From: an uncultured Acidobacteriota bacterium
Lineage (GTDB): Bacteria; Acidobacteriota; Vicinamibacteria; Vicinamibacterales; UBA2999
Length of the DNA: 64,000 nucleotides
Direction: 5' to 3'
Assembly (NCBI GenBank): GCA_963846685.1
Contig: CAWJWY010000002.1
Coordinates: 1,924,023-1,988,022, forward strand
The number at the start of each line of letters is the position of its first letter. Position 1 is the first letter of the stretch. Below the pieces are notes generated by a model. The model saw nothing but the letters and a program-made list of their open reading frames with translations. It did not search any database and was not told where the DNA came from. Positions 4,487 to 57,915 of this stretch are shown one piece after another. Made by a program: the position numbers and the translations under genes.

Positions 4487-7400
4487 TCAGAACGACAGCT
4501 TGGTCGCGACCTGGATCACCCGGGGCGCCTGCGACAGCGAGATGACCTTGCCGAAGTTGGCGTTGCTCATGTTCGTGACCGGGTTGCTGGGATTGGCGTG
4601 ATTGAGCAGGTTGAACGCCTCGATGCGCAGCTGGAGCTGCTTCGAACCGGTGACTCGGAAGTTGCGCGACAGGTTCGCGTCGATGTTCCAGCGGCCCGGG
4701 CCCTGGAACGCATCGAGTGGCATCGTGCCGTAAGTGCCTGCCGCCGGCACGGCGAACGCCGCCGGATTGAGCCACTGGTTGTAGCTCGGGTCGGCGACGA
4801 ACGGATCGTCGAGCACCTGGTTTGCGCGCTGCGCATTCTGGCCGGTCAGCGCCGAATCGACACCGGTGGTGACCGTCAGGTAGCTGCCCGAGCGCGCGCT
4901 GACGATCGACGAGACCTGCCAGCCACCGGTGAGTACGCCCAGGACGCCCGGGCCACCGGTAGGCGTCGCATAGACGATCGAGCCATTGAAGATGTGGTCG
5001 TTGGTGTTGGTGCAGCGTGCGTGGTCACGCTCGCGGTCGTGCGGCACCATGTAGGTGTTGCCCGCCGTGCCCGGCTCGTAGTTGATCACGTCCGACGTGC
5101 AGTTGGAGTAGGTGTAGGTGCCCTGCAGGGTGAAGCCGGCGGCGCGGCGGCGCTGCAGCTGGATTGCCACGGCGTCATACGCCCCCTGCCCCTCGCTGAG
5201 CACACCGACGACCGCTGAGTAGTACGGTCCCCACACCGGGTCCTGCAGCGTCAGCTCGCGGCGGGCGTTGACGTTGTTGGCGGTGGATGCGCCTGGGATG
5301 TAGACCGCCGGGTTGAGCGAGTCGGTGGTCCAGGCGTTGCGCGTCCGCGTCGCCAGGTAGTTGAGCGACCAAGCGACGTTGTCGCCGACCTGCTGCTGGT
5401 AGCTCGCATTCCACTGATGGACGTTGGTTGCCGGCTGATCGACCGGGAACGACGTGTACGAACCGCCGAGCGGGAAGGTGAAGTCCTTCGACAGGACGAA
5501 CGGCTGCGGGTTGCCGCCCGGATAGGCCGCCCATGGGTCCTCCCAGCCGTTGGGCAGATTCGTGATGCTCAGGTTGTTGCCGAACGGCGGCATCTGCGGC
5601 AGCGACGAATAGGTCTGCAGGTGCGGCATGTCGTACAAGTGGCCATAGGAAGCGCGCAGTGTCCGGCGCCCCTCGGCGGTCGGATCGTAGACCACGCTCA
5701 GGCGGGGCGAGAAGTTCCACCACTGGTTCTTGGCGATCTTGTTGCCGTCCGGCATGCCAGGGTCGCCCGGGAACATCAGGCCGGGGGGTGCCTTCGGGAA
5801 CACCGTGCTGCGGACACCCTGGTTGAACGCTTCGCGGTCGAAGTGCGTGATGTGGCCGTCCAGTGAGAAGATCGGCAGGTACGGTTCCCAGCGCAGCCCG
5901 TAGTTCACCGTGAAGTTCGGCGACAGGCGCCAGCTGTCCTGGCCGTAGATGCCGATGTAATTCGCCCGGATGGTGTTGCCGGACACGACGCCGGTACCGA
6001 AGTTCGTCGAGCGGCCGAGCAGAAAGTCGGCCAGGCCAAGACCCGTCACCTGACCCGAGAAAGTGTTGGCGCCTACCGCGCGCAGGTACGACATCGAGTT
6101 GTAGACCGTGCGGATGTAATTGGCGCCGACTCCGATGGTGTGCGCCCCCTTGATCGTCGTCAAGTCGTCGGCGATCTGGTAGGCGCGCGTCGGCGTGTCA
6201 CCGGGTTGCGCATTGCTCGCGCCCATCGAGAAGCCGCCGGTCACGTTGACGTTGATCAGCCCCGGCACCGGCGGAATCACCGGGATACCCAGGTCGGTCG
6301 CATCGAGGATGTCGACCGAGTACTTGTGGTAATCGCCGCGGTTGGCAGTCACCCGGATCGAGTTGACGGTATTGCCGGTCATCACCAGCGTGTCGCCGAA
6401 CACGAATGAATAGAGACGGTTCTGGACGTCCGTGCTCTTGATCGCGTTGATGTACTCACTGACGCTCGCCGGCGAATCCTGCTTCTGATACTCCATGCGG
6501 CCGAACACGGTGTGGTTGCCCGACAGCGTGTAGTCGACCTTGCCGATGAGCATGTGCTCATCCTGCTTGTTGACCTGGTCGTAGAACGCCTTGCCACACT
6601 CGTCGATCGGCTGCGTCAGCCGCGCCGACACCGCGAGTGACGCCCGCGAGAAGAGCGCCGGGTTGACCTGGTTGTTGACAAACGGCGCGCGCAGCGTGAT
6701 ATCGCGGCCGCTGTTGCACGCCGGCGACGTCACCGCCCTGAAGTCGCCGCGCAGCATCGCCGCGGTCGGCACGAACTCGAACGCCGACGCCGGCGTCTGG
6801 CGCAGGAACGTCCCCTGGTAGCCGCCGAAGAAGAACAGCTTGTTCCGGATCAGTGGGCCACCGAGCGTTCCACCGGTCTGGTGCCGCTTCAGACCGTCGC
6901 CGCGGCGCTTGCCCGTCTCCGGGTTGACGGAGGCAAACGGGTCCGTCGCGTTGAGGCGAGCGTCGCGATAGAACTCGAAGAGCGTCCCGCTGAAGGTGTT
7001 GGTGCCCGACCGGGTGATCGCGTTCACCGCGCCCGCCGAGTGGCGGCCGTACTGCGCCGTCAGCGCGCTGGTTTCGACCTTGAATTCCTGCAGCGCCTCA
7101 GGGAACGGGAACGGCTGCGGCGCGTTGTTCATCGGATCGTTGTGATACCCGCCGTCGAGCAGGTAGGACGAGCCGTTGGCGAGACCGCCGGCGATGGCGA
7201 TCGTCTGCGTCGTGCCGACACCACCACGGATGCCGCTGAGCGTCCCGCTCTGCACCGCAATACCCGACAGCAGGATCAGGTCGGTGGCGTTGCGGCCGTT
7301 GAGCGGCAGTTCCTGGACTTTCTCGTTGTCGATCACCTGTCCAAGCCCCGGGTTGCGGGTTTCGACAAGCGGCGCGGTCGCTTCGACCTGCACCGTCTCG

Positions 7401-7756
7401 GTGAGCTCACCGACGCCGAGGACAGCGTTCAGCGTCGGGCTGGTCCCGACCTGCAGCACCACGCCGTTCTGTTGGAACGACTTGAACCCCTGCAGCGAGA
7501 ACTCGATCCGGTATGGACCGACCGGCAGCGCGTTGAGTGTGTAGTCGCCGGTCTCGCTGGTCACGGTGGTCCTGACCTGTCCGGTGGCTGTCTGCGTAGC
7601 GGTCACGGTGACCCCCGGCAGCACGCCGCCGCCATCGTCCTTGACGTTGCCGCCGAGCGAGGCAGTGGAAACTGCCTGCGCCGAGGCGGTCGCGACCAGC
7701 GACAACCAGACGAGGAACACCCACGCGAAATTACGGAATCGCTTCATAACAGTCAT
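4487..7756 (-). CDS. TonB-dependent outer-membrane receptor with N-terminal carboxypeptidase-regulatory-like domain
   Basis: 1089-aa intact ORF; signal peptide; CarboxypepD_reg-like N-terminus (GVTVTATQTATGQVRTTVTSETGDYTLNALPVGPYRIEF); C-terminal aromatic ending ...ATKLSF; GGGAG SD 9 nt upstream of ATG 7756. Confidence 0.85.
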   Translation of the reverse strand: MTVMKRFRNFAWVFLVWLSLVATASAQAVSTASLGGNVKDDGGGVLPGVTVTATQTATGQVRTTVTSETGDYTLNALPVGPYRIEFSLQGFKSFQQNGVVLQVGTSPTLNAVLGVGELTETVQVEATAPLVETRNPGLGQVIDNEKVQELPLNGRNATDLILLSGIAVQSGTLSGIRGGVGTTQTIAIAGGLANGSSYLLDGGYHNDPMNNAPQPFPFPEALQEFKVETSALTAQYGRHSAGAVNAITRSGTNTFSGTLFEFYRDARLNATDPFASVNPETGKRRGDGLKRHQTGGTLGGPLIRNKLFFFGGYQGTFLRQTPASAFEFVPTAAMLRGDFRAVTSPACNSGRDITLRAPFVNNQVNPALFSRASLAVSARLTQPIDECGKAFYDQVNKQDEHMLIGKVDYTLSGNHTVFGRMEYQKQDSPASVSEYINAIKSTDVQNRLYSFVFGDTLVMTGNTVNSIRVTANRGDYHKYSVDILDATDLGIPVIPPVPGLINVNVTGGFSMGASNAQPGDTPTRAYQIADDLTTIKGAHTIGVGANYIRTVYNSMSYLRAVGANTFSGQVTGLGLADFLLGRSTNFGTGVVSGNTIRANYIGIYGQDSWRLSPNFTVNYGLRWEPYLPIFSLDGHITHFDREAFNQGVRSTVFPKAPPGLMFPGDPGMPDGNKIAKNQWWNFSPRLSVVYDPTAEGRRTLRASYGHLYDMPHLQTYSSLPQMPPFGNNLSITNLPNGWEDPWAAYPGGNPQPFVLSKDFTFPLGGSYTSFPVDQPATNVHQWNASYQQQVGDNVAWSLNYLATRTRNAWTTDSLNPAVYIPGASTANNVNARRELTLQDPVWGPYYSAVVGVLSEGQGAYDAVAIQLQRRRAAGFTLQGTYTYSNCTSDVINYEPGTAGNTYMVPHDRERDHARCTNTNDHIFNGSIVYATPTGGPGVLGVLTGGWQVSSIVSARSGSYLTVTTGVDSALTGQNAQRANQVLDDPFVADPSYNQWLNPAAFAVPAAGTYGTMPLDAFQGPGRWNIDANLSRNFRVTGSKQLQLRIEAFNLLNHANPSNPVTNMSNANFGKVISLSQAPRVIQVATKLSF

Positions 7757-7881
7757 TTATTCGGGCTCCCTGATAAGGCGGGCCATCATGCCTGTTACCA
7801 CCGGCGCATGCAAGTGCCGCTCGTGGTTCTGCGTCGACTCCGCTACAATCCACCCGCCCGTTTCGCATCTGGGAGGCAGTC

Positions 7882-8331
7882 ATGAGATTCCCCGCGGCGC
7901 TCGGCGTGACGGCGGCAGTCGCGATGGTGTGTACCTCCACCTCCGGCTTCACCCACCATTCGTTCGCAGGCGAGTTCGACAACTCCGTTGCCGTGACGTT
8001 GCAGGGCGTCGTCACGAGCGTCGAGATGATCAACCCGCACAGCTTCATCTACCTGGACGTGAAAACGGCGGGTCGCGTCGAGCGGTGGGCGCTCGAGGGG
8101 CCCGCTCCGAGGCAGCTATTACGGATGGGGTTGCAACCCGACTCGATCAAGCCGGGCGACGAGGTCGGCGCCTGCGGCTACCTTGCCAGGCACGATGTGG
8201 TGCGCACCAGGATCGAGCCGGGCGCGGCGCGGCCCGCGCGCAAGCTGCAGGCCGCAGTGCTGACGATGCCGCACTCGGGAACGGTGGTCTGGAACAACTA
8301 TCGCCAGGGGAAGTGCGGGCTCGACACGTAA
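7882..8331 (+). CDS. Small secreted hypothetical protein (possibly DUF6152-like)
   Basis: 149-aa ORF with signal peptide; HHSFAGEFD...NPHSFIYLDV pattern. Confidence 0.45.
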   Translation: MRFPAALGVTAAVAMVCTSTSGFTHHSFAGEFDNSVAVTLQGVVTSVEMINPHSFIYLDVKTAGRVERWALEGPAPRQLLRMGLQPDSIKPGDEVGACGYLARHDVVRTRIEPGAARPARKLQAAVLTMPHSGTVVWNNYRQGKCGLDT

Positions 8332-8458
8332 TCAACGCGTGGTAGATCGAGCGCTGGTCGTGCTCAGGCGCCATTCTCTGGGCAGCGGCGACGCTCGAAG
8401 GGCGCAGTGCGGTGGCCATCGACGCGACGCGACAGGTCGCGACGAAGGCGCCGCATCA

Positions 8459-10135
8459 TCACGCTGGCGCGTTGGCCTGGACGGCAGAGTTTCCGGTAAC
8501 ACTGGCTCCCGGCCGCCGCGGCTCACCAACCTTGTAGCGTGCCGGGATGCCCAGCAGCTCGAGGCACAGCGGCGCAATGTCTACCGAGCGCAGGTGCCGC
8601 GGGAGGGCGCGGGGCGCATTCGCCAGGATGAGCGGGCTGAGCGAGTCGAGTGCATGCAGAGCGCCGTGCGAGGCGCCGCCACAATGGGCCTCGCCGCCGG
8701 GCACCTCGAACTCGCAGCCCGGCTGGGCGGTCACCCACAACTCGCCGCTCTGCTTCATCTCCAGGACGCCGGCGATACGCTCGAACGCGTTCGGATAGTC
8801 GCGCGACTCGATCAGGCGCCCGTCACGTTCGAGCCGCAGCACCTCGAGATCGCCGCGCCACGCCCACGCTGTGCCCCACGCATCCGACCCGCCATCAGCC
8901 GCTGTGCCCGGCCAGAAGTCGAGACGCCCCGCCGGCCCGAGCACGGTGTAACCGCTACCGTCGTCGGTCAGGGCTGATTTCCACATCACCAGGTCGACAC
9001 GCGGATCGCGCAGCGTGGCGCGGGCGACCCGCTCGACGAGCGCTGGCGACGGCCGTTGCAGGTAGATCTGCGCCGCCCGCATGTTGGGGCAGATCATGAT
9101 CTCGTCCTCCGGCCGCCAGCCCTTACCCAGGTCGGCGTGCGCGAACTCGCCCAGCACCGTCTGCAGCTCGATCACCGCCGCCTCGCGATCGGCGAGGATT
9201 TCGCAGTGCCCGTGATCGGATGTGACGATGACGCACGTGTCACGCATGAAGCGGTCGAACCCGCCCGCCGCATCGAACATCGCGCCAAGAGCACTATCCA
9301 CGCCCTGCAGCACCGGCAGCGCGGCGTGCGGACCGACCTTGTGGCTCTGGTAGTCGTTGTCGGCGAAATAGGCGACGGTGAAGTCCGGAAACGCGGCGTC
9401 GGCCGCGAGCTGCTGCAGCAGCTCCGCCGTCGACGCGTCGTCCATGCCGAAGCGATGGATGACGCCGCTCTTGCCGTGCAGCTTGCTGCGGCGCCGCTTC
9501 GTTTCGCGGCCGGTGACGAAATCGCCGAGGCTGAGCAGCTTTGGCCCTTTGACCGTCTCCGTCAGGGGCACACCCGGCAGCAACGCCAGGAGCCACGGCA
9601 CGTTCACCTTGTGAGTGACGATGCCGCGGTGGACCAGGTAGTTGAGGCATGCGGCGGAACGGCCGGCCTGCTCAACCAGCTCGAACATTGTCGGTGCCGT
9701 CAGGCGATCGCCGTTCAACCTCACCAGGAAGTCGCGCAAAAAAGCGCCGAACCCCTCCTTGGCGATCACCCAGAAATCGTCGCCGTAGTACGCCACCTCG
9801 CCGCGCGCATCGTCGAACCACGAGGCGCCGGCGATACCATGCTCCGCCGGATACGCGCCAGTGATGATCGAGCTGGTGGCGGCCGGGGTAATCGAGGGAA
9901 AGATCGTCGCCGACTGCTGGTGCATTTCCCCTGCGCCGGCGAGCCGCTTCAGGTTGGGGAGCAGCCCCGTCTGTACAGCCGGACAGAAGACGCGCGGCGA
10001 GGCCGCGTCGATGACGACGAGCAGGAGCTTCACGAGAAGAATGCTTGCAATGTGAGTGCCTCGACCGCGCGCACCGTCAGCTGGAGCAAGTGCGGCACTC
10101 GACGGGCGACCCGGCCGGGTGGCCTCCGCCGACAC
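8459..10135 (-). CDS. Alkaline-phosphatase-superfamily nucleotide pyrophosphatase/phosphodiesterase (type I phosphodiesterase family)
   Basis: LLVVIDAASPRVF, SITPAATSSIITGAYPAEHGI and TSDHGH motifs; start uncertain (90-nt overlap with the divergent ogt ORF suggests a later or alternative start). Confidence 0.7.
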   Translation of the reverse strand: MSAEATRPGRPSSAALAPADGARGRGTHIASILLVKLLLVVIDAASPRVFCPAVQTGLLPNLKRLAGAGEMHQQSATIFPSITPAATSSIITGAYPAEHGIAGASWFDDARGEVAYYGDDFWVIAKEGFGAFLRDFLVRLNGDRLTAPTMFELVEQAGRSAACLNYLVHRGIVTHKVNVPWLLALLPGVPLTETVKGPKLLSLGDFVTGRETKRRRSKLHGKSGVIHRFGMDDASTAELLQQLAADAAFPDFTVAYFADNDYQSHKVGPHAALPVLQGVDSALGAMFDAAGGFDRFMRDTCVIVTSDHGHCEILADREAAVIELQTVLGEFAHADLGKGWRPEDEIMICPNMRAAQIYLQRPSPALVERVARATLRDPRVDLVMWKSALTDDGSGYTVLGPAGRLDFWPGTAADGGSDAWGTAWAWRGDLEVLRLERDGRLIESRDYPNAFERIAGVLEMKQSGELWVTAQPGCEFEVPGGEAHCGGASHGALHALDSLSPLILANAPRALPRHLRSVDIAPLCLELLGIPARYKVGEPRRPGASVTGNSAVQANAPA

Positions 10136-45861: not shown

Positions 45862-48832
45862 CGCCGACGTAGTCCTTGCGGCAGACGACAGAGTAGGCGC
45901 AGTATCGGCACCGCATCGCGTCGTGCGGCCGCGGCGGGAACGCGCCGCCGCCGATGCCATCGAGCACGCCGAGCAGACGCTCCCGCGCATCGTCAAGGAC
46001 CGCCGTCGCGTCGGTGGCGCCGGCCTTGACGACCGGAACGAGCGAGCGCTTGCCGGCGAATGCGACGTAGGCGGCCTCGTCTACCGTCCACGATGCGCCG
46101 TCCCGCTCCTCCAGTCGCTCCTTCGCACACAGCGCGTAGATCGGCACCTGCAGCGCTCTCCGGGTGTTCGGCGCCATGCCCGACTTGTAGTCGATGACCC
46201 GCAGGCGATTGCCAGCCAGCAGATCGATGCGATCGGCGACGCCCTTCAACGCCACAGTCGCGCCGCCCTCGATCCCGAGCGAGAACTCGCCTTCCAGGCG
46301 GTACTCGAGCCAGCGCTCGGTCACTTCGGCAGGGCGGGACGCTTCGAGGCCGAGCACCACGTCGACGATGCCGACGGAGATGGCGGAGCCGAAGAGCCGC
46401 GTCCGCTCGAGGCCGGCGTCGGCGTCGGGCAGGCGCGACAACAGCGGCTCGGCGACCGCGGCAAACAGCGTGCGGGCGCGGTCGACCTGGTCCGAGGTGA
46501 TGGTGCCGTGACCGGCGGCGTCCCATGCCGCAAAGAACTGCTGGAACACCTCGTGGATGAAGCGGCCGCGCGCCCGTGGCGACAGCCCGGTTTCGTCTTC
46601 GACCTGCTCCTCCAGCCGCAGCACGTCGGCGGCGAAGAACTTGAACGGGCAGTCCTGGTAGCGTTCGAGAGCACTCAGCGACAATGCCGCCGGCGGCGGT
46701 GGCGTCGTCGCGCCGTGGTAGCGCGGCGCATCGAGCGGCGGCGCCGCAACGCGAAACGCCGCCCACTCCCGCGTCAGCGCCGGCAGCACCGCGGCGTCCA
46801 GGATCGTCGCGGTCAGCGCCTCGAAGTCGAAGACCGCGACGTCCGGCTCCTGCTCGACACATCGGTCTGGCGCCGCAATGTCGAGTTCGTCGAGCAGTGG
46901 CGACGGCCCGACGATCGAGTCCGCTTCCAGGCTGAAACTGGAGACCGCCAGCCGTTGTCGCGGCAAACGCAGGAGATCGGTGAACGCCGCCCGGGCGCCA
47001 TCGATGCGCCCGGCTTCGGCTGGCCAGCCGAGCTCACGCAGCACGCCGGCCGAATAGAAGATGCTGCGGCGCGGGCGCGCCGGCCACTCGCCGTCGATCA
47101 GTCCTGCAAGCTGGATCTCCTCGAACTCGCCAAACCGGGCGCTGTCCGCGTCGACCAGGTGCACGCCGGCGTCGCCGGTACGCGGCGCAAAGGTGTGTCC
47201 CTCGATCCAGCGGCGGACGAGGGCCGCGACCTCGTCGAACGGCAACGGCGTGCTGTCGAAGCGGCGATACGCGTCACGCAGCCCCGCGAGCGTGCCGAGC
47301 ACGGCGCTGCGGGCGCGCAGTTGGCGCGTGCGCCCGTCCTCGTCCGGACCAGGAAGGTTCTCGTGCCGAGTCAGAAATTGCGTGAGGACAGTGAGGTGTT
47401 CCGCCACCGTGCCGTCGCGGCGGAGCGGCGCCAGGCTGCGGGCGACGTGCAGGAGCGCTTCACCGGCGCGGAGTGCGCGCTCGAGCCGGCCGCGCGACGG
47501 TGCCGCCGCGCGCCAGCTGTCCAGCAGCCGCTCGAGCGCGTCGGCATCGCCAAGATACCCGGCTTCGCCGAGCGCACGATCGAGCGCCGCCACATCGCCG
47601 GCGCCGAACGGCCGCGGCTCGCCATCGCCACCGATCCGGAAGTGAGGCGACCGCAGCAGCGCAATCGCCGGGGCGCGGGCAAAGTCGCCGGTCACCGCCG
47701 AGCACACCAGGTCGAGCGCGGCGGCATAAGGCTCCGCGGCCAACGGCAGCGCGTCGAACATCTGGCACGGGATGCCGCCCGAGCGCAGCACCTCGCGTGC
47801 GACATACACATACGGCAGCGGCTGGTGCACCACCAAGGCGATGCGGTCGAGCGACGTCACGTTGCGCTCCCGCACCGCCGCCTTGACCCGGCGCGCAAAA
47901 CCGCCGATCTCCTCTTCGCGGTCACGACTGACGTGGACGAGTGGCGCGCTGCCCTCGCCGTCGCGACGGCCGGGCGGCGGCACGACCAGCACCGGCAGCC
48001 AGCTGTCGGGTGCGTCGACGCGCACCTCCTCGATGCCTGGCAGCACCTGGTGCATGCGCTCGTGCAACGCACCGGCGAGTACCCGATCGGTCACGACGAC
48101 GTCGAGACGGGCCAACCCGGGGACTCGCGCGAGTAGATCCCAGTCCGCAGGGTAGAGACCGTGCGGATCGAATGCGCGATCGCCAACGGCAAGGACGACG
48201 TGCGTGACCGGGTTCGCCGCAGGCTGCTGTAACAACCGCCGGCGCAGTTCGTGGTCGTCGAGGCCGGCGGCAGCGCAGCGCAGCTCGAAGTCGCGATAGG
48301 CGGCGACGAGGAAGCGGGTCTGCCGCACGAGCCGCTCCGCGCCGCGGTCGTAGGCGGCGCCAGGCTCCAGCTTGTCGAGCGCGCGCCGCTCGAAGGCGTC
48401 GATGTCGTTCTGATTCCAGCGGAGCGTGTCGTAGAAGCGCAGGATCTCCGCAATCAGGCCGGGGCGCAGCCGGAATGGCGGGTCGAAGCCGGCATCGCGG
48501 GCGGCGCGGCAGGCGACGCCCAGGAGCACTTCGCGCTCCGCGTCCGTCAGCACTGGACGGCCCACGTCGAGCCGGTCAGCGAGCCGCGTCACCAGCTCCG
48601 CAGGGGTGATGAGGTCTGGCAGCAGCATGGCGCCGGAGGAGCACGCCGAGGCGTGGAATGCCTGGTCTTCGAGCGTGCGCAGGAGGTGCGCCGCCGCCGC
48701 CCTCGTCGGCACGACGATGATGCGGTTGCGCGCGTCGAGCGGCGTGCCCGTACCCGCCAGGTCGACCAGCGCGCGGCGAAAGGCGCGCAGGTCGGCGGTC
48801 CGCACCAGCTGCGTGGTGCGCGGCGTAATCAC
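45854..48832 (-). CDS. addB: AddB/AdnB-like helicase-nuclease subunit (PD-(D/E)XK with C-terminal Cys cluster)
   Basis: 992 aa; C-terminal CRYCAYSVVC Fe-S-type Cys cluster typical of AddB nuclease domains; tightly coupled to addA. Confidence 0.7.
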   Translation of the reverse strand: MITPRTTQLVRTADLRAFRRALVDLAGTGTPLDARNRIIVVPTRAAAAHLLRTLEDQAFHASACSSGAMLLPDLITPAELVTRLADRLDVGRPVLTDAEREVLLGVACRAARDAGFDPPFRLRPGLIAEILRFYDTLRWNQNDIDAFERRALDKLEPGAAYDRGAERLVRQTRFLVAAYRDFELRCAAAGLDDHELRRRLLQQPAANPVTHVVLAVGDRAFDPHGLYPADWDLLARVPGLARLDVVVTDRVLAGALHERMHQVLPGIEEVRVDAPDSWLPVLVVPPPGRRDGEGSAPLVHVSRDREEEIGGFARRVKAAVRERNVTSLDRIALVVHQPLPYVYVAREVLRSGGIPCQMFDALPLAAEPYAAALDLVCSAVTGDFARAPAIALLRSPHFRIGGDGEPRPFGAGDVAALDRALGEAGYLGDADALERLLDSWRAAAPSRGRLERALRAGEALLHVARSLAPLRRDGTVAEHLTVLTQFLTRHENLPGPDEDGRTRQLRARSAVLGTLAGLRDAYRRFDSTPLPFDEVAALVRRWIEGHTFAPRTGDAGVHLVDADSARFGEFEEIQLAGLIDGEWPARPRRSIFYSAGVLRELGWPAEAGRIDGARAAFTDLLRLPRQRLAVSSFSLEADSIVGPSPLLDELDIAAPDRCVEQEPDVAVFDFEALTATILDAAVLPALTREWAAFRVAAPPLDAPRYHGATTPPPPAALSLSALERYQDCPFKFFAADVLRLEEQVEDETGLSPRARGRFIHEVFQQFFAAWDAAGHGTITSDQVDRARTLFAAVAEPLLSRLPDADAGLERTRLFGSAISVGIVDVVLGLEASRPAEVTERWLEYRLEGEFSLGIEGGATVALKGVADRIDLLAGNRLRVIDYKSGMAPNTRRALQVPIYALCAKERLEERDGASWTVDEAAYVAFAGKRSLVPVVKAGATDATAVLDDARERLLGVLDGIGGGAFPPRPHDAMRCRYCAYSVVCRKDYVGDE

Positions 48833-50208
48833 TGCAGTTGCGGCGGCTCGAGCAGCGTCCGCAATTCCTGTTGCGCGCGCGAGAGCATCAGCAGCGCTCC
48901 GGCGGCGGCCGACGACGCTTCCCAGGCGCGCGCAACGTTGCCGCTGGAGATGGCGTCGAACCGGCCGTTCGCGGCGCTTTCGGCAAAGCGCCAGGCACCG
49001 ATCAGCAGGTCGTGCGTCGTGCTCAGCTCGTCGGCGGCAGTGACGCGCTGCAGCCGATCCGCCCCGCCGGTGAGGCGCCGTCGCAATGCGATGAGGCGGT
49101 CGGGGTCTGGGCCGTCAAGCCGGCGGATGGCTTCGAGCAGTGGCTGCGCCTTGACGAGTTGCAGCAACTGCGACGAGATGCTGCGCTGGTAGTCACGGTA
49201 GATGTCACGACGGAGCAGCCACTGGTCGCGGCGCAGGCGCAGCTGCCGTGCCGCTTCCAGCTGCTGTTCGACCTGCGCGCGCAGAGCCTGGACTGCTTCC
49301 GGACGCTTGCCACCGAGTCGGGCATCCTCCTTCGGCAGCGCATCGAGAATGCGCTGCACGGTGCTGACGCGGGCGCCGCGGGACGCGCGCGCGGCCGCGT
49401 CGGACAGCCGGCGTGACAGCCGCGCGTAGCGCTGGTCGATGTCGGCTTCGGCCTTGATCTGCTCCTCGGCGGATCGACGCAGGTTGCGGGCGGTGTCGGC
49501 ATCGATGCCAGTGCCGGGTTCGGCCAGCATCACCAGGGCAGACTGGAGCAGCGCAACGCGTTCCGCCGGCCGCTCGACGCGGCCCGCCAGCGCGAATATC
49601 TGGTCCACCTGTTCGCGGGCAGCGGGCATGCCGCTCACCGGCTCGAGCGCGAGTGGCGGCACCGTGACCAGCGACAGCGCGAAGCCGGACGCGGCGTTCG
49701 TGTTGCGCAGCCCGGCGATCGCCTCGTCCAGCAAGCCGAGGATCTCCCGCACGTCATCCTGGCGATAGCCGTAGTGCTGCTGCGGCCACTCGGCCAGCGT
49801 CCGGCGCGCCGATTCCGCCACTTCCAGCGCGCGGGCGCGGTCGGTGGTCAACGCGATGTCGTTCAGTACGCTGGCGATCTCGTTGCTCAATTGCTGGAAG
49901 TCGGCTTCGCCGCGGGTCGCAGCGTAGCGCTGGTAGCGGGCCGAGTCGGCGTACTGCTCGGTGCGCGGCCAGTTCACCGTGTCCGCCGGGAGCGTGACCA
50001 GGTGCAGCCGGGGATCGTCGCCGGTGCCGCCGGCTGGCGCGGAGAAGATGACGCGGTCACCGACCCGGGCGTACTCGCCGTAGCTCACCACCGAGGTGCC
50101 GTCCATCAGGAAGATGCGGAAAAGCGTCGCCTCCGCCGCGGCGAGTGCAATCGCCGGCACGAGCATGCACATGCATGCGCCGAGAACGGTACGAACCCAG
50201 GTTGCCAT
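48829..50208 (-). CDS. Secreted hypothetical protein, helical and Arg-rich, translationally coupled upstream of addB
   Basis: Signal peptide MATWVRTVLGACMCMLVPAIALAAAEA at Met 50208; stop overlaps the addB start (ATGA-type 4-nt overlap). Confidence 0.5.
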   Translation of the reverse strand: MATWVRTVLGACMCMLVPAIALAAAEATLFRIFLMDGTSVVSYGEYARVGDRVIFSAPAGGTGDDPRLHLVTLPADTVNWPRTEQYADSARYQRYAATRGEADFQQLSNEIASVLNDIALTTDRARALEVAESARRTLAEWPQQHYGYRQDDVREILGLLDEAIAGLRNTNAASGFALSLVTVPPLALEPVSGMPAAREQVDQIFALAGRVERPAERVALLQSALVMLAEPGTGIDADTARNLRRSAEEQIKAEADIDQRYARLSRRLSDAAARASRGARVSTVQRILDALPKEDARLGGKRPEAVQALRAQVEQQLEAARQLRLRRDQWLLRRDIYRDYQRSISSQLLQLVKAQPLLEAIRRLDGPDPDRLIALRRRLTGGADRLQRVTAADELSTTHDLLIGAWRFAESAANGRFDAISSGNVARAWEASSAAAGALLMLSRAQQELRTLLEPPQLQ

Positions 50209-50875
50209 GCTGCCGAAGCTGACATTGTACCTCCCGCAAAATGGCCTTCCGGCCGTTGCCGGCGGCTGCTGTGGAAAACCTGTGGATGGTGCGTGCATAT
50301 CCTGTGGACAACCGGACACGGCAACTTTTTCTCACGCGCGATCGCCGCGCTTCACCGCCGATCAGCCCTGTGGATGCGGCCTTCGTCACCCGCTTCGCTT
50401 GATCGTGTCGACCAGGCGCGTAGAATCAACGCCGTTCGCCCCCGCTCCTCAACACACATCCACCGTGACCGTTCATCGCTTCGAAAAAACCATTGGCGGC
50501 CGCGCGTACCACATCGAGGTGACGCGGGTCAGTACCAGGTGGCGAGCCCAGTTGCGGCGCATGCCGGGGATGCCCACCGCCATGATGCCGTTCTACGGTC
50601 AGACGCCCGACGAGGCGGCCGAGCTGTTGACGGAATGGTTGACGCTGGCACATCGCCGCGTCGCCGCAGCTGCCGTGGCGAAAGCCCCGCTGCCGACCTG
50701 ACATCGGGTATCCGGGGGCTGCATCAGACTGCTGCATGCGCAGTGCTGCATGGACAGTGCTGCATGGAGAGTAGCGCCCATCGCTGACAGATCAGGTCAC
50801 AGCCGGCAGACCATCCCGCCGGGTTGCGCCCGTCTCTGCCGTGCGCTACGATTATGTGTTCAGCGAGTCGTGAAC

Positions 50876-50951
50876 GGGCCTGTAGCGCAGTTGGGAGCGC
50901 GCCTGAATGGCATTCAGGAGGTCACCGGTTCGATCCCGGTCAGGTCCACCA
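50876..50951 (+). tRNA. tRNA-Ala (anticodon GGC)
   Basis: Cloverleaf: acceptor GGGCCTG/CAGGTCC with G3:U70; D arm GCGC-AGTTGGGA-GCGC; anticodon stem CCTGA/TCAGG with loop ATGGCAT; T arm ACCGG-TTCGATC-CCGGT; encoded CCA. Confidence 0.85.
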
Positions 50952-51164
50952 ACCTTTCATTTCCATCCGTCAATCGGCCGCAAGTAGCTGAAGGCCGGTG
51001 CGGTTACGCGGGTTCCAACAAAGCCTTTTCCGTCGAACGCGATTCCGTCCGGAAAGAACAGTTGTTGGAACCGCTGCCGCTGTTCGAGCGACGCCTGCAC
51101 CCAGAGGTCGGCGGCGCGCGGCAGAACGCGTTCTGCGAACGCCAGGATGCCCTCTACGTCGAGT

Positions 51165-52434
51165 TCATCGAGCTGGCCGGAGTGACGGTCGATCCGGAGC
51201 GAGCGTGAGCTCCTCGCGCAGTTTCTCGGCGTGGCGGTCGTACGTCTCGATGTCGATCGAGCGCTCGAAGAGGAACGCTTCGTCCAGACGGTCCAGCTTG
51301 TCCTGGATCGCCTTCGCCGCTCGCTCGGCGTTCGCGAGCTCCTCGCGCACCGCCGCCTTCCGCGCCTTCCAGATCTGCAGCACGGATTCCTTGAGTAGCC
51401 GCATGTAGCCTGGCGTTGGCTGCAGCAGCGCCAGTTCGTCTGCGAACAGTCCTTCGAGTTTCGCCTTCGTCACGTTGACCGCGCGGCAGCCAGGGCGGCA
51501 GTGGTAGTACGCGTAGTACTCGCTTCGGCCCTTCGACCAGCTGCCGGTGAGGCCTCGACCACAGGACTCGCAGCGCACGAAGGCGCGCAGCGGGAAGTCC
51601 GGGTGCGCCCGCTGCTGTGGCGTGGTGCTCGGAACGTCGCCCGGACAGGACCGCCTGCACGCGGTAGAACAGGTCCTCGGAGATCAGCGGCTCGAAGTCG
51701 CCGCGTTTTCCGCGAACGCCGTACTCGGTGACGTCCACGATGCCGGCATAGAGCTGGTTCCGCAGCAGCACGCCGATCGCTTGCGATGTGAGCGGACGGC
51801 CGCGCCGGTTGGTCAAGCCCCAGGCTCTTGACTGCTTGAGGAGCTGTTGCTTGGTGAAGCGCCCGGTCGCGTACTCCTCGAATGCTCGCCGCACAAGCGG
51901 CGCCCGCTCAGGATCGGGCATCAGGCTCTTGCCCATCGCGCGCGGCGCGTTCAAGTAGCCGATCGGCGCCAGGAACACCCAGCGGCCGAGCTCCAGTGCC
52001 GCCTTCATGCCGGCGCGCGTCCGGTCTGACCGACAGTCGTTGTCGAACTGCGCGAATGCGGCGAGCACGCCCTCCATCAGCTTGCCGGTGGACGTGTCGT
52101 CGATCGGCTCCGTCGCCGACCGCAGCGAGATGCCGAGCGACTGCAGGTGCGAGCGGAGCGCGAAGTGGTCGTACTTGTCGCGCGCGAAGCGCGTCAGGTT
52201 GAACACGACCACGAAGTGGACGCGGCCCTTGTTCAGCCGACAGAACGTGAGCAGGTTCTGAAGCTGGCTGCGATCCGTGGTCTTGGCGCTCTCGCCTTCC
52301 TCGTGGAAGCGTTCGAGGATCTCGTAGCCCTGGCGGCGGCAGTACTCCTCGCAGGCGCGAAGCTGCGTCGGCAGGCTGAGATTCTCGGTCTGCTCCTTCG
52401 TGCTGACGCGAACGTAGATCACCGCGCCGACCAT
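51165..52434 (-). pseudogene. Large serine recombinase (resolvase-domain integrase) split by a frameshift near 51600
   Basis: N-terminus MVGAVIYVRVSTKEQ (catalytic Ser), recombinase domain; zinc-ribbon/coiled-coil C-terminus CESCGRGLTG...YYAYYHCRPGC in the 51165..51578 frame. Confidence 0.7.
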
Positions 52435-52493
52435 GGTCGGCAGCGTAGATCCATTCGCCGGCTCGGGCAAGCTGCGTTTGCGAGGCACGATGC

Positions 52494-52679
52494 CTACTCG
52501 GAAACGCGACACTGCTCCTGGTACATCTCGACCACGATGCACGCCATCGTCTCTGCGTGCCGGCGGATGTCCTCGATGTCCTGATCGGTCATCGATTCCG
52601 CGTCCTCGCCGAGCAGTTCCCGACAGCGCGCGATCGAAATCGGCTCCGGCCTCGGATCCGCATGTTCGACGTACTCCAT
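52494..52679 (-). CDS. Small acidic hypothetical protein upstream of the recombinase (possible RDF/regulator)
   Basis: 61-aa ORF starting MEYVEHADPRPEPISIARCRELL; AGGGG 9 nt upstream. Confidence 0.25.
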   Translation of the reverse strand: MEYVEHADPRPEPISIARCRELLGEDAESMTDQDIEDIRRHAETMACIVVEMYQEQCRVSE

Positions 52680-53716
52680 GGGCACCCCTGCGAACTCGCT
52701 GCAGACGTTCGTGATGCGGTGGAGTGCGCTCGAAGCGCGCCGACCTGGTGCCGGCGCGCCGAGACGATGAGCGTGGATGTGGCGTGACGCCGACACCGAA
52801 GCGCGTGACTTGAAGTCGAACGCGCTGATCGCACGAGACGTGCGCGATCAATCGACTGGTTGTTGAAGGAGCTGACAGCGTTGCTCTGAGAGCGTTGGCT
52901 ACAGCGCTCCGCGTCTGGCAGGACTGCGGAGGGGTGCGCGATGGCACCGACGAGATCTTCACGATACGACTGCCGGCGCATCCGGTCAACGCCGAAATGA
53001 GGACGAGCTTCGTCGGCCATCACATAAGTGCGACCTTCGAGCTGCGCGCAGGCGTCGTCAAGGCCGAAGCCCGCAGGGTCGAGCGCAGCGAGAGCCTTGA
53101 CGGCGCCGAGCACAGCTCGATCCTGGTCATGTGATGGCCGATGTTCTGGGGAGAATGGTCGTGGAGAAGTGCGGGAAATTCTGGAGAAGATCTGCGCCGC
53201 GTACGCGCGTGACAACGCACGTGCAACCAGTGTCAGAAGAGCAGCTCAGAGATTCATCGAGTTGTTCTCCAGATTGCGGGTCGAATACCTTCTGCGCAAG
53301 CGGGTGGACTTTCGGCGCCGACACGGACACCGACAGCCTGTTCAGGCGGGCGTGAGCGACCACGTCCGTGGCCGCAGGCTTGGCAGGCCAAGCGGCCATT
53401 TCGGGTGGTCGCTCACGCCACGGGATTGCTGTTGGCGACCGCTTCGGCACTGGCGCCACCAGGCGGGCGGCAGAGTGCGCCGCCCGAGACGACAGGTCGT
53501 AACCTGCGCGGCGACCTGCAGTTGTCGCTTGCTCTCGTCGCGCGCGAGTGTCGCCGTCTTGTCGCGAGGACGAGTCCTCGAGCCGGATGCCGTCCAGGGG
53601 GAACACCTCGCGCGAGCCCCTGTCCCCCCTGTGTTCCCCTCATGTTCCCCCAACGAGGCGGATTAGCAGCGACCAGCCTCGGATGAGTGGTCGCTGCAAT
53701 TCGTGGTGCCGGTCGG

Positions 53717-54838
53717 TCACGTCTTCTGCTTCGCGATCCTCAGAACGGGGTTTGCCGCCGCTCCGAACCTTCGGCCGGGGACCTCGTCGGCGGTGATGGC
53801 GCCTTCCTTTTTCAGTTCGCGAACCAGCTCGTTGACGTGCTTCGGCAACCACCACTCAGGCCTGACGGCGGCGTGCAGATCCTGCCATCGCTCAGGACGA
53901 CGCGAGAGCCGATTCAGTATCCAATCGCGCAGAGGACGAAGGTCCGGCTCGGGCTTGATCAGGAACTGCTGATCAGGGTTGTCAGAGCGGCGGACCATGA
54001 AGCCGCCCGCCGGCGACACTGACCACGCGCATTCCTTCATCAGGTCGCGCCCGTCATTCGAGTTCGTGAGGTGCAGCAGGACGTACCGAGTCGCTTGTCC
54101 ACCCGTGACCATTCGCACCGCCGACGTCCACCACTTCGCGCCAATGCCTCGCGCCATGAGCGGAATCGCGCGGTCGAGACGCTCGTCCATGCCGTCGCCA
54201 ACAACCTCGGTACGCCAAGAACCGGAACCGAAGATCTCGTCGAGCGTTTGCGCATGCGGTGTGCCAGGGGCTGGCCGCTGCTGAACCAGCATGTCCAGCT
54301 CGCGCCACATCACGTTGATGAACAGCTCGACTCGACCAGCTTTCATCAGATCGCCAAGCAGGCCCGCAGGGATCTTGAAACCGTACGGGTCGACAAAGAG
54401 GAACGCGGGTGCCATCTGAGCACGGTCGCGGCGGAGTTCGTTGAGGATGGCGGACAGACGCTCGAATGCGTCACCCTCGCTCGTCTCCACGTTGACCCGA
54501 GCCGGAAATGGTTTGAGCTGAGAGAGCTCCGCTTCGAGCGCCGCGAGATTCGCGGGATCTCGCTCGATGAACAGGAAATTGAACTCGGAGGCGTTCAGCA
54601 GCTTGTCGCGGTAGGAGTGGCGCAGCAGCGTCTGAAGCGCGAGGACCGGTGACCCCGGGTCGCCGCTCTCGTAGCGCCCTCGACCAGCGTGGGTATCGAC
54701 GTACAGGACGCGCCGAGCCCAGGTACCGAGCTTCGGGTACCAGCCGTTCAAGTAGCAGCGAATCAGTTCGTGCTTGACGTGCTGAAACGGTCCGTACTGC
54801 TCCCAATAGGCGGGATTCGGGTCCGATCGCCGGGTCAT
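53717..54838 (-). CDS. tcmP: Three-Cys-motif partner protein TcmP (TIGR04474-like; methyltransferase-fold)
   Basis: N-terminus HELIRCYLNGWYPKLG...YVDTHAGRGRYESGDPGSPVLAL (xDxFAGxG-like); immediately downstream of and 4-nt overlapping a Gp37/Gp68 gene, the defining context of this family. Confidence 0.6.
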   Translation of the reverse strand: MTRRSDPNPAYWEQYGPFQHVKHELIRCYLNGWYPKLGTWARRVLYVDTHAGRGRYESGDPGSPVLALQTLLRHSYRDKLLNASEFNFLFIERDPANLAALEAELSQLKPFPARVNVETSEGDAFERLSAILNELRRDRAQMAPAFLFVDPYGFKIPAGLLGDLMKAGRVELFINVMWRELDMLVQQRPAPGTPHAQTLDEIFGSGSWRTEVVGDGMDERLDRAIPLMARGIGAKWWTSAVRMVTGGQATRYVLLHLTNSNDGRDLMKECAWSVSPAGGFMVRRSDNPDQQFLIKPEPDLRPLRDWILNRLSRRPERWQDLHAAVRPEWWLPKHVNELVRELKKEGAITADEVPGRRFGAAANPVLRIAKQKT

Positions 54839-55611
54839 GCATTGCTCGCTGCGAGAACGCGATGGAAGGCGAGCGGAAACTCATCGTACGTGCGGCCGTC
54901 GAGCGTCCGTCCGGTTTCGTGCTTCCGTGTGCCGCCCCACTGCTTGAAGAAGAAGGGCACCCGCTGCGCGCGGCATTGACGACGGATGTTGACGACCCAA
55001 TCTCGAAGCATCGGACGGGCGCGCGGGCCGCTCTCTCCGCCGACGATGACCCAGTCGATCTTGCGCAGGTCGAGAGGCCCGAGGTCGGCGAGCAGGGGTT
55101 CTACCGAGAGGAATCGAAGGCGTGCCGGCGTGTCCTGGAGCGACCGAATGCGAGGCAGACCGTAACGTCGATCCTCGACGCTGACACCGAAGGCGACGTG
55201 TTCGAGATCGGCCATCCACCGCAACTCACCCAGCAGCAGTTCGCGCAGTCGCTCGTCTCGCTTAGTGAGGACCTGAAACAGGTGCCAGTCAGCTTGTCGC
55301 ATGACCTCTCCAACGCGACCGATGTAGTCGGCTGGAACGTCATCGTGAAAGAGGTCGCTCATCGAGTTGACGAAGATCTTCCGCGGGCGTCGCCAGTGCA
55401 GCGGTTGCTCAAGCTTTTCGGGCACCAGTCGGAGGTCGAAGCCCTGCTCGAAGGGGTGTCCAGGCACGCCGCGGAAGCGCTCAGAGAACACCTCCGCGTA
55501 GCAGAATTTGCAGCCCGGGCTCACCTTCGTGCAGCCGCGGACCGGGTTCCACGTCGCGTCCGTCCACTCAATCGCCGAGCGGTCGCTCATGGTGGACCAG
55601 TTTACGTCCAT
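54835..55611 (-). CDS. Phage Gp37/Gp68 family protein (DUF5131)
   Basis: IEWTDATWNPVRGCTKVSPGCKFCYAE three-Cys N-terminal signature; 258 aa. Confidence 0.8.
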   Translation of the reverse strand: MDVNWSTMSDRSAIEWTDATWNPVRGCTKVSPGCKFCYAEVFSERFRGVPGHPFEQGFDLRLVPEKLEQPLHWRRPRKIFVNSMSDLFHDDVPADYIGRVGEVMRQADWHLFQVLTKRDERLRELLLGELRWMADLEHVAFGVSVEDRRYGLPRIRSLQDTPARLRFLSVEPLLADLGPLDLRKIDWVIVGGESGPRARPMLRDWVVNIRRQCRAQRVPFFFKQWGGTRKHETGRTLDGRTYDEFPLAFHRVLAASNA

Positions 55612-55729
55612 TCGGTGACAGGGCAGGTCACACGGAACAATCGCGAAGATTTCCAGTTCACTTGACTATTCGTTTCAAGTTTATTCATAGTTTGTGAATA
55701 TTACGGCGGACACGTTCAAGAGACGAGCT

Positions 55730-56813
55730 TATGAAGAACTCCTTGGTGGTCTTCGTCGTTCTCCTGTTTGTGGCGCATGCGTCGGCTGAATGCGAAGCAG
55801 GCACGTACCGCCCAGAACCGCAACGCCTTCGGACCCAATCTCCACGATTCTCGACGCGTTCAAAACCCACGAGATCGTGACGCTGACGGATCCACACGGC
55901 AATATTCAAGTTCAGGCGTTTCATCCTGGAGCTTGATTCGCGACCCACGATTTCGCCAGGCGGTGAACGATATCGTGATCGAGACGGCGAGCGCGCGGTA
56001 CCAGGACGCGATTGATCGCTATGTCCGCGGTGACGACGTCGAGAGAGCCGTCTTACGGAGAGCCTGGGAGGATCACACCGTCGCGAATAGTCTGGGGGTT
56101 CAAGCGGAAGAACTGATCCAAGCCGTCCGTACGGTCAATGCTTCAGCGCCGAGGAAACGGGGAGGCTACGTATCATTGCTGGTGACCCGCCGATCGATTG
56201 GGGCAACATCACTCGCCGCAGGACGGCAGTCGGTGGACAGAGCTTCGCGACAGCTACCCGGCTGATCTCATTCGACGGCAGGTTCTCGATCGTGGCCGCC
56301 GCGCGCTTGTCGTCTACGGACAGGGTCATTTCCAGCGCCGTCAGATTGTCGCCAACTACGACATGTCCACGTGGCAGGCGCAGACTGTCGTCAGTCTGCT
56401 CGAGCGGGACCACGGCGCGCATGTCTTCAACGTTTGGACGCTGGTGGACAAGAACGTCGAGACTTCCAGCGGGCGTCACATCGTGGCGCGTCCCGAGTCT
56501 TGCGGCCCTGCGAGGCACAACGCTCGGGGCCAGAGACTTCGGACTGTACAACCGCGGCTTAGGTGACGGAACCCGTTTTGGCGTGAAGGGCGGTCAGCTG
56601 GTCCCGGTCCCACAGGCTGAATGGAAGACGATGCGAATGGAGGATCAGTTCGATGCTCTCCTATACCTCGGGCCACCCACATCGATGACCATCGCCTCAG
56701 TGCCGGCCGCACTTTGCGAGGACGCGGACTTCGTGAAGCGTCGGGTGGAGAGGCTTAGCCGCTTTGGACCTCCGATCGAGGTTCAGAACTTCAAGAAGGC
56801 CTGTGGTCTTTGA
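55730..56813 (+). pseudogene. Secreted protein gene broken by >=3 frameshifts (function unknown)
   Basis: Starts with signal peptide MKNSLVVFVVLLFVAHASA; coding potential then passes through the 55768, 56198 and 56292 frames. Confidence 0.45.
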
Positions 56814-56860
56814 TCCGTCAGGTAGGAACGACGTCTTGAACCGGACTGGGTAGCCCGACT

Positions 56861-57191
56861 GTGCCACGCGACTACTTGACCGACTTCCAGTTGATGCTGT
56901 TGCTCGCGATTCTGCGAGTAGGCGAAGAGGCGTATGGTGTGCCCATCGCGCGCGAGATCGAGGCCTCCGGTGAACGCACGGTGATGCTCGGGGCCGTCTA
57001 TACTGGCCTCGACCGGCTTGAAGCCAATGGATTGGTTTCATCAGCGTCGGCTCACCAACAGCCGAGCGGGGCGGTCGTGCGAAGAAGTACTTCCGTGTGA
57101 CGCCAGCTGGCCTGAAGGCGGTCCGGCAAGCCAAACGGGCATTTACACGGCTATGGTCTGGGGTGCCAGGCTTGGAAGGAGGACGCTCATG
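56861..57191 (+). pseudogene. PadR-family transcriptional regulator with a frameshift near 57050
   Basis: LLLAILRVGEEAYGVPIAREIE...VYTGLDRLEANGLVSS in one frame; PadR C-terminus AERGGRAKKYFRVTPAGLKAVRQAKRAF in the next. Confidence 0.55.
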
Positions 57192-57779
57192 AAAAAGACG
57201 CGTACACCTCTCCAGCTCGCCCTTCTTCCCTATCTTCTCGGCGATGATGAGCCACTCGTTGGGGATCTCGTCGAAGAGTGGCCTCGACGATCGACCGCCT
57301 GGTTCTGGCGTCAGGTCGTTTTTGCGGTGCTGGCCACGGCTGGGGCGACCGCATCGGCAGCATTGCGCGACCCGCAACGGCTGACCGGAGCGCTTGGGGC
57401 CACTGCGATCTTCCTCATTCTGAGTTTTCAGGTCGTCGTGGCTGGCAGCCTACTCGATGACCTGATTCGGCGGATCGACCGCACCCAGGTGACCCGAATC
57501 GATCACCCGGAGTGGCTGCTGTTTTTCGTCCTGTTGTCGCTCCCGGTAGCGTGGTTTATCGGGAGGGCAATCGGTGTCCTGCACCATCGTTCTCGTGCTG
57601 CGACAGTCGTAATTGCTGGCGCCGGTGCCGCCGTCGTCGGGGCGGTGACCGTCTCTGTATTGAGCGCGACTGATGCCTTCTTTCCATCAGCCGCCCAGCA
57701 AACCGCGGCGGGCATGGTGTTTGTGCTCGGGTTGCTGACCGGGAGCTCGAGCCGTTCTCCTCTCGATCGACAGGCCTGA
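57188..57779 (+). CDS. Membrane protein partner of PadR (hypothetical)
   Basis: ATG overlaps the padR stop (ATGA); 4-5 predicted TM helices. Confidence 0.45.
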
Positions 57780-57915
57780 TTCGGTCCCCGTCAGTCGTCA
57801 CGCGGACTGTATCAGCCCGCTCATGCGGTGCAGCCAGTTGAACACTTGGTTCCAACTGGCGATGTTCAGGTCCACCAACCTTCCCCTCTCTCCGCTCTCC
57901 TTCTAAAGGATTTCC

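Follow-up and report, generated by a model that had tools for sequence, protein, structure and literature searches.

In this study, we report the computational characterisation of a two-gene cassette located at positions 53717-55611 of a 64,000-nucleotide stretch of DNA (the window; contig CAWJWY010000002.1) from an uncultured Acidobacteriota bacterium. The cassette encodes a DUF5131 protein of the phage Gp37/Gp68 family and TcmP, the three-Cys-motif partner protein. Our preferred reading, held with a confidence a little short of even, is that the two form a two-subunit S-adenosylmethionine (SAM)-dependent nucleic-acid-modifying enzyme, with DNA as the likeliest substrate, and that it is carried as a mobile cassette used in conflicts among phages, mobile elements and hosts. 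Catalogues already list the pair, as TIGR04474 plus PF07505 and as the PADLOC candidate systems PDC-M30 and PDC-M41, which were found by 'guilt by embedding' and are non-validated (PMC10855318); the window pair is one more member, with no difference in kind. What is added here is the specific assignment of TcmP as an RlmJ-like protein with a putative DP(Y/F/W)G catalytic loop, the finding that spore photoproduct lyase consistently ranks nearest to DUF5131, and an asymmetric partner dependence in which TcmP is recurrently replaced by DNA methylases in phages and DUF5131 occurs in compact and expanded forms.

The DUF5131 gene occupies 54835-55611 (258-aa open reading frame, ORF) and the TcmP gene 53717-54838 (373-aa ORF); both are intact and lie on the minus strand, within the span given by the original prediction, which was made from the letters alone. 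The 4-nt overlap that it had described was read directly from the sequence as an ATGA at 54835-54838, in which the DUF5131 stop and the TcmP start are shared, and a -4 junction was also the commonest among intact loci with DUF5131 followed by TcmP (8 of the 28 scored). Only the DUF5131 start shifts, since homologues begin MSDRS and the probable start is M8 at 55590 (251 aa), not 55611. DUF5131 matched Pfam PF07505 with an E-value of 1e-93 (313.8 bits, cut-off 28.9) over model positions 2-243 of 243, and TcmP matched NCBIfam TIGR04474 with an E-value of 2e-44 (152.3 bits, cut-off 53) over model positions 4-262 of 263. The two proteins also matched both components of PDC-M30 and PDC-M41, with the genes adjacent as the definitions demand (B component, 1e-101; A component, 7.5e-21 for M30 and 1.5e-13 for M41). 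A pseudogene or chance ORF was ruled out, both genes being intact and highly conserved.

The partnership was assessed across 68 loci, comprising 67 from a scan of a genome collection and the window itself, 64 of which had enough flank to be informative. DUF5131 adjoined TcmP or was fused to it in 58 of these 64, with DUF5131 first in 46 loci, TcmP first in 6, a convergent arrangement in 3 and a fusion in 3; the pair of Gordonia phage Easley is convergent. Six TcmP loci had no DUF5131 despite room for it, but in four of them TcmP was merely fragmentary and in one (L037) a different partner was present; three TcmP loci sit at contig ends. Nucleotide similarity to the window was confined to the two genes in 47 of 50 matching loci, with limits at about 53720-55592, and no conserved third gene was found by all-against-all clustering of the neighbours, a clustering that is noisy in high-GC genomes. 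Pairing in all gene orders, the three fusions, the lack of a third gene and the restriction of similarity to two genes together argue for a two-subunit partnership, in which the proteins would form a complex. The cassette is self-contained, accessory and horizontally mobile, and the TcmP family as a whole comprises 1,123 clusters at 50% identity (E<=1e-10). No entry in the gene-position index has exactly the TcmP sequence of the window.

Several individual loci depart from this pattern. At L037 (6092-7045, minus strand) TcmP is convergent with a 317-aa protein carrying a canonical radical-SAM-like motif, GCEHDCLYCYA, that is, CX3CX2C followed by Y-A as in DUF5131; this protein had no PDB or Pfam match and looks like a second, undescribed partner family. 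On the Halopiger plasmid pHALXA02 (L072, 3350-7140) the neighbours of an archaeal TcmP with a GMT-wHTH domain are, in place of DUF5131, two canonical Pfam Radical_SAM proteins, one with a faint match to the SPL family. The two halves of DUF5131 are about 1 kb apart at L012 (5964-7994) and parts of TcmP about 1.5 kb apart at L048 (6312-8942), which suggests insertions. Genes are broken by frameshifts at L029, L049, L054, L057 and L064; such broken cassettes reflect either frequent decay or long-read assembly errors.

The original prediction had noted an N-terminal CX6CX2C motif, CTKVSPGCKFC, in DUF5131 and had asked whether the protein is radical-SAM-like. The motif is present at 55498-55533 on the minus strand as C27-x6-C34-K-F36-C37-Y38 (CTKVSPGCKFCY) and is predicted to be cluster-binding from alignments of homologues. 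C27, C34, C37 and Y38 were invariant in 46 close homologues (alignment A2); in 13 distant homologues, phage proteins included, the first and third Cys and the Tyr were invariant and the second Cys was conserved in at least 90%, and the CX6CX2C spacing was found in 68 of 74 viral homologues. The residue preceding the last Cys is F or H, matching the radical-SAM C-x-aromatic-C signature, and the spacing is non-canonical. Four further blocks on the minus strand, NSMSD (55354-55368), LTKR (55258-55269), GGESG (55027-55041) and FKQWG (54934-54948), were invariant in alignments A2 and A4, and an S-EPLL block was likewise conserved in close and distant homologues; these blocks may serve in SAM or substrate binding.

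Beyond the motif, DUF5131 matched NCBIfam TIGR04471, 'radical SAM mobile pair protein A', over 203 residues (E=5e-19), with a score of 68.6 bits that lies far below the cut-off of 355. RadicalSAM.org lists DUF5131 as megacluster 5-2, beside spore photoproduct lyase in 5-3 (PMC9477430). The AF2 model (pLDDT 76) has alternating strands and helices, and the top structural match of its putative barrel in two comparison methods was spore photoproduct lyase, with weak scores. With this structure check run, DUF5131 is concluded to be a radical-SAM-type enzyme whose nearest characterised relative is DNA-acting, the evidence for the fold being moderate and not strong. Spore photoproduct lyase (SplB) is a radical-SAM DNA repair enzyme which shares the aromatic-C-Y arrangement with DUF5131, but its spacing is CX3CX2C and its length about 340 aa, compared with CX6CX2C and about 250 aa; unlike SplB, the DUF5131 of the TcmP-paired subfamily has an obligate methyltransferase partner. 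The radical SAM mobile pair proteins A and B (TIGR04471/TIGR04470) are likewise a two-gene, mobile-element-associated pair to which no function is assigned, but there the partner is a second radical-SAM protein and not a methyltransferase.

TcmP consists of an N-terminal tail, an RlmJ-like class I SAM methyltransferase domain (approximately aa 16-275), a linker at 276-296 and a winged helix at about 297-370. In the AF2 model (pLDDT 78) a Rossmann core spans residues of about 16-275, the linker is disordered, and residues 297-370 form three helices and a beta hairpin with pLDDT 85-97. All landmarks of the catalytic domain lie on the minus strand and have counterparts in RlmJ: K22-H23 (54770-54775) aligns with K18-H19; motif I, YVDTHAGRGRY (54671-54703), the predicted SAM-binding loop and the second motif quoted in the original prediction, aligns with YLDTHAGAGRY; G62-S-P64 (54647-54655) aligns with G99-S-P101; and motif IV, D150-P-Y-G-F (54377-54391), the predicted amino-methyltransferase catalytic loop, aligns with D164-P-P-Y. 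The K-H, motif I and GSP residues were invariant in 51 homologues (alignment A1), as were D150, P151 and F154, with G153 nearly so, and distant viral members carry a classical motif I, DxFAGxG, and a motif IV of the form DP[YFW]G. The C-terminal winged helix-turn-helix (wHTH; 53786-53992, minus strand) matched Pfam GMT-wHTH (PF22560) with E=2.7e-5. It is the least conserved region of TcmP, yet PF22560 was matched by 47 of the 51 homologues (best E-value, 2.6e-8), and it is presumed to be a nucleic-acid-binding or targeting domain.

When the TcmP profile was compared with the PDB, RlmJ entries were the only sequence matches, through YLDTHAGAGRY. Alignment with the E. coli rlmJ product using hhalign gave a probability of 81%, covering motif I alone at default settings; a full-length, collinear alignment of 177 columns was obtained only under a relaxed mact setting, and further paired DTHAGRGR with DTHAGAGR, PGSP with PGSP, IERDP with TELHP, GDAF with ADGF and VDP-YG with IDPPY. 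The RlmJ profile used is shallow, all 120 homologues among the matches listed being at least 83% identical. Judged from its motifs and model, TcmP is very probably an RlmJ/Trm1-type amino-methyltransferase that is active and has a winged helix added, and the Rossmann methyltransferase anticipated by the original prediction was thus upheld by the conserved SAM-binding and catalytic motifs and the modelled core. It is placed outside the RlmJ family proper because the threshold of the RlmJ family Pfam PF04378 was not reached (one of the 51 homologues matched, E=0.2) and because the RlmJ helical subdomain (E. coli residues of about 53-95) is absent, leaving a 43-residue gap in the alignment.

RlmJ (PF04378) is the 23S rRNA m6A2030 methyltransferase, and it shares with TcmP the K-H, DTHAGxG and GSP motifs, in the same order, and the Rossmann fold. 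Its motif IV is DPPY, in contrast to the DPYG of TcmP (DP(Y/F/W)G in the family), and TcmP carries about 100 extra residues including the wHTH. RlmJ is moreover a housekeeping gene, whereas TcmP is a mobile accessory gene paired with a radical-SAM enzyme and would be unlikely to methylate A2030 in 23S rRNA. Also grouped with RlmJ as close to TcmP is chain 2oo3_A, which bears the label 'protein involved in catabolism of external DNA'. Another solved relative, the tRNA m2,2G26 methyltransferase Trm1, acts on RNA and differs in its C-terminal domain, and no sequence-level match between it and TcmP was detected.

The dependence between the two proteins is not symmetrical. DUF5131 was found in at least 181 phage records and TcmP in 13. 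Among the best 80 IMG/VR loci (L084-L163), TcmP was immediately adjacent to DUF5131 in 28; four more had a short protein resembling TcmP and containing DLFCGPG or DPFSGPG (one also NPYG), leaving about 48 without an adjacent TcmP-like gene. DNA methylases appear in its place: a C5 cytosine DNA methylase (gp63) lies just upstream of DUF5131 in Gordonia phage Bakery, another (gp39) two genes upstream in Rhodobacter phage RcapNL, C5 methylases were located within 5 kb of DUF5131 in seven viral loci, and N6_N4 and D12 methylases were among its immediate viral neighbours. DUF5131 proteins paired with TcmP are compact (median 245 aa, 30 of 31 being <=252 aa), and in unpaired ones insertions often raise the length (median 280 aa, maximum 375 aa; Mann-Whitney p=2e-6). 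From this difference in size, TcmP may supply in trans what the insertions supply in cis, such as substrate binding, and DUF5131 alone would not be expected to be toxic.

Other viral loci carry neighbours of further kinds. Short convergent neighbours of 273-284 aa at L113, L124, L131 and L160 have methyltransferase-like motifs and no Pfam match. In Burkholderia phage phiE125 (L081, 2452-3504) gp38, a 350-aa protein with no Pfam match, lies close to the integrase and attP; it shares 4 nt with the start of DUF5131 (gp37) and may be another partner type.

Nine neighbourhoods (L073, L077-L080 and L164-L167) were surveyed for defence and mobile-element genes. A type I HsdR, HsdM or HsdS gene adjoins the cassette at L078, L079 and L080; L077 has an MmeI/Eco57I-type enzyme, transposases and a PsyrA-like gene; and L073 has an N6_N4 methylase, NOV_C (PDC-S36, 2e-102), an HNH protein and HicA. 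At L165 the neighbours are an RNase_T gene (PDC-S48) and transposases, at L166 a Ymh-like gene, at L164 recombinases and at L167 only housekeeping genes. The TcmP of Gordonia phage Easley comes immediately after the immunity repressor, shares its strand and has an integrase close by. A TcmP gene of S. meliloti is listed beside the defence gene hna (PMC12445080). Among 100 P. aeruginosa strains, 32 carried PDC-M30, and 68.8% of these carriers were phage-resistant (PMC10855318). The nucleic-acid modification or anti-phage role suggested by the original prediction fits these neighbourhoods and the candidate status in PADLOC. As a separate observation, the Rhodococcus plasmid pUSK13_1 (L070, 3415-6817) encodes two divergent TcmP paralogues and one Gp37/Gp68 gene, with a zeta toxin and Wadjet-like DUF3375, DUF4194 and ATPase genes as neighbours.

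Such surroundings also suit a restriction-modification-like or abortive defence, which we consider unlikely. TcmP would methylate host DNA as a self mark, and radicals generated by DUF5131 would damage unmarked invading DNA by hydrogen abstraction from sugar or base, giving lesions or breaks. The matches of both proteins to PADLOC candidates, the adjoining type I/IIG restriction-modification and other defence genes, the placement of the Easley TcmP after the immunity repressor on the same strand, which is the usual site of prophage defence genes, and the greater frequency of PDC-M30 in phage-resistant P. aeruginosa are all consistent with it, although that last correlation is uncontrolled. The combination of a methyltransferase and a second enzyme in a two-gene cassette also resembles restriction-modification, classical systems being likewise compact, equipped with a SAM-dependent methyltransferase, situated in defence islands and often beside type I genes. 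The resemblance ends with the second enzyme, which is of the radical-SAM type: no nuclease domain was found in either protein with Pfam, and no conserved third gene could provide one. Radical-SAM enzymes are slow and oxygen-sensitive, and would make poor restriction effectors. Above all, the dependency is reversed, since by the phage counts given above it is the supposed effector, DUF5131, that is solitary far more often than the methyltransferase, and the supposed protector, TcmP, that almost never occurs without a radical-SAM partner. The frequent independence of DUF5131 in phages thus argues against a simple restriction-modification logic.

For the two-subunit DNA-modifying enzyme that we prefer, the following sequence of events is proposed. 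C27, C34 and C37 of DUF5131 would hold a [4Fe-4S] cluster, which would cleave SAM to yield a 5'-deoxyadenosyl radical, and this radical would remove one hydrogen atom of a nucleotide that is flipped out, in the manner of spore photoproduct lyase. The winged helix of TcmP would bring the complex to its target, and the DP(Y/F)G pocket would hold the base and transfer a methyl group before or after the radical step. DNA is favoured as the substrate because the nearest enzyme to DUF5131 repairs DNA, because TcmP has a wHTH and because phage DUF5131 genes lacking TcmP adjoin DNA methylases. A role in conflict is suggested by the PDC-M30/M41 matches, by the restriction, defence and toxin genes in the neighbourhoods and by the prophage repressor and integrase context. 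The action of TcmP in trans is suggested by the compactness of paired DUF5131 and the insertions of unpaired forms. The modification would probably serve to mark self or to protect, and not as a nuclease-like attack. In its most novel form, the proposal is of a chemically new DNA modification, in which SplB-like radical chemistry would act on a base that is flipped out and methylated by an RlmJ-like methyltransferase. An epigenetic mark based on radical-SAM chemistry (or a restriction based on radicals) would be a first in phage-host conflict, with the expanded solitary DUF5131 of many phages using this same chemistry as a counter-measure. We offer this form tentatively and regard it as doubtful.

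A number of results weigh against the preferred reading. DUF5131 had no match to Pfam Radical_SAM PF04055 even at E<=10, Pfam SPL PF20903 was matched by none of its 46 homologues, and sequence and profile searches of the PDB with DUF5131 returned nothing. In viruses, about one DUF5131 gene in two lacks an immediately adjacent methylase, and where one is present the adjacency could merely reflect a common location in phage DNA-metabolism modules. The phage partner methylases also differ in base and atom specificity, which a single fixed two-step chemistry would not easily explain. None of the window's own neighbours matches a defence family. Literature searches on both families, PF07505, GMT-wHTH and PDC-M30/M41 found no functional study, in keeping with the original description of the pair as conserved and functionally uncharacterised, the families themselves being catalogued without a function. 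Finally, the closest solved relatives of TcmP, RlmJ and Trm1, act on RNA and not on DNA.

This last point is the basis of a further explanation, less likely than restriction-like defence, by which the pair modifies a tRNA or rRNA nucleotide and so tunes or protects translation during infection, or evades anticodon nucleases. The N-terminal K-H and motif I of RlmJ are nearly letter-identical in TcmP, and many radical-SAM enzymes act on RNA, among them RlmN, Cfr, MiaB and TYW1. Against it, the cassette is accessory, mobile and often decayed, and not part of a core set; TcmP lacks the RlmJ helical insertion (53-95) and has an added wHTH; and the nearest relative of DUF5131, its alternative partners in phages (DNA methylases) and the neighbouring systems are all directed at DNA.

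The similarity of DUF5131 to spore photoproduct lyase could also be taken at face value. DUF5131 would then be a DNA-repair enzyme reversing a lesion by radical chemistry, for example UV photoproducts in dehydrated packaged phage DNA, and TcmP a lesion-recognition or regulatory subunit. Besides the top rank of the lyase in both structure-comparison methods, the common C-x-aromatic-C-Y arrangement and the solitary state of DUF5131 in many phages agree with this idea, and one phage record (H38) labels a DUF5131 homologue as spore photoproduct lyase. The lyase uses C91, C95, Y97, C98 and Y99 together with a fourth catalytic Cys, C141 (PMC3742179), and the fourth invariant Cys of DUF5131, C213, is loosely like this Cys/Tyr hydrogen relay. 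The analogy is doubtful and was not relied on, as the prediction puts C213 where a helix ends, on a side of the barrel away from its top and from the usual active site; its position and the cluster geometry were judged from the secondary structure of the model. Repair also lacks a Pfam SPL match, and leaves unexplained both an obligate partner with intact methyltransferase catalytic motifs and the restriction and defence neighbourhoods with their 'guilt by embedding' status; we consider it improbable. A SAM-depleting anti-restriction enzyme was rejected as inconsistent with the tight coupling to SAM-using methylases.

Both families are widespread, TcmP by its cluster count and DUF5131 by its phage records, and neither has a known reaction. 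If radical modification of DNA is true, it would represent a new class of epigenetic or defence chemistry and would account for a 'hypothetical' gene that recurs in actinobacteriophages and prophages. Candidate catalytic residues are C27, C34, C37 and Y38 in DUF5131 and K22, D48 and D150 in TcmP. Further testable handles are the expected wHTH-targeted heterodimer, the division between compact paired and expanded solitary DUF5131, and the predicted lack of toxicity of DUF5131 alone.

The window instance is an ordinary family member on a small, probably immobilised island. Its likely left edge and integration site is a tRNA-Ala(GGC) gene at 50876-50951 on the plus strand (ARAGORN; Rfam tRNA, 64 bits). 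A large serine recombinase gene follows at 51154-52419 on the minus strand and is frameshifted, with the Pfam Resolvase and Recombinase domains in one frame and the Zn-ribbon and C-terminus (51165-51578, minus strand) in another; the orthologue at L001/L164 is a single 489-aa frame. The island is therefore probably immobilised, or a sequencing error lies in the recombinase. GC content falls to 0.63 over 50952-57900 from 0.69 on its left and 0.67 on its right, and the GC3 of the pair is 0.76, against 0.82-0.90 in core genes. The same tRNA-recombinase-TcmP arrangement was found at L006 with 84-90% nucleotide identity. The locus L004, from a related member of the Vicinamibacterales, matches the window in the chromosomal flank to the left of the tRNA and has the cassette in the opposite orientation, its positions 116-2909 and 7239-9114 corresponding to 48020-50674 and 53720-55592 of the window; this suggests an integration hotspot or an inversion. 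The tRNA, the recombinase, the lower GC and the comparison with L006 and L004 agree with the earlier description of the pair as island cargo. No direct repeat of the tRNA 3' end that would mark an att site was found in the window, so the right boundary is approximate and based on composition.

Upstream of the operon, an AT-rich intergenic region of 156 nt (55612-55767; 45.5% GC, window 67%) is presumed to hold the promoter and regulatory region. No minus-strand sigma-70 consensus was found within it, the sole match (55662-55691) being on the plus strand and pointing away. No SAM riboswitch or other Rfam element was found near the operon, nor any convincing terminator for it. Further along, a PadR-family regulator gene (56861-57100) overlaps one for a predicted membrane protein with a weak DUF6529 match (57018-57779), both on the plus strand. 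At L164, the closest complete relative of the cassette, PadR-MacB/FtsX pairs lie directly upstream of DUF5131, and PadR may be a recurrent neighbour of the cassette.

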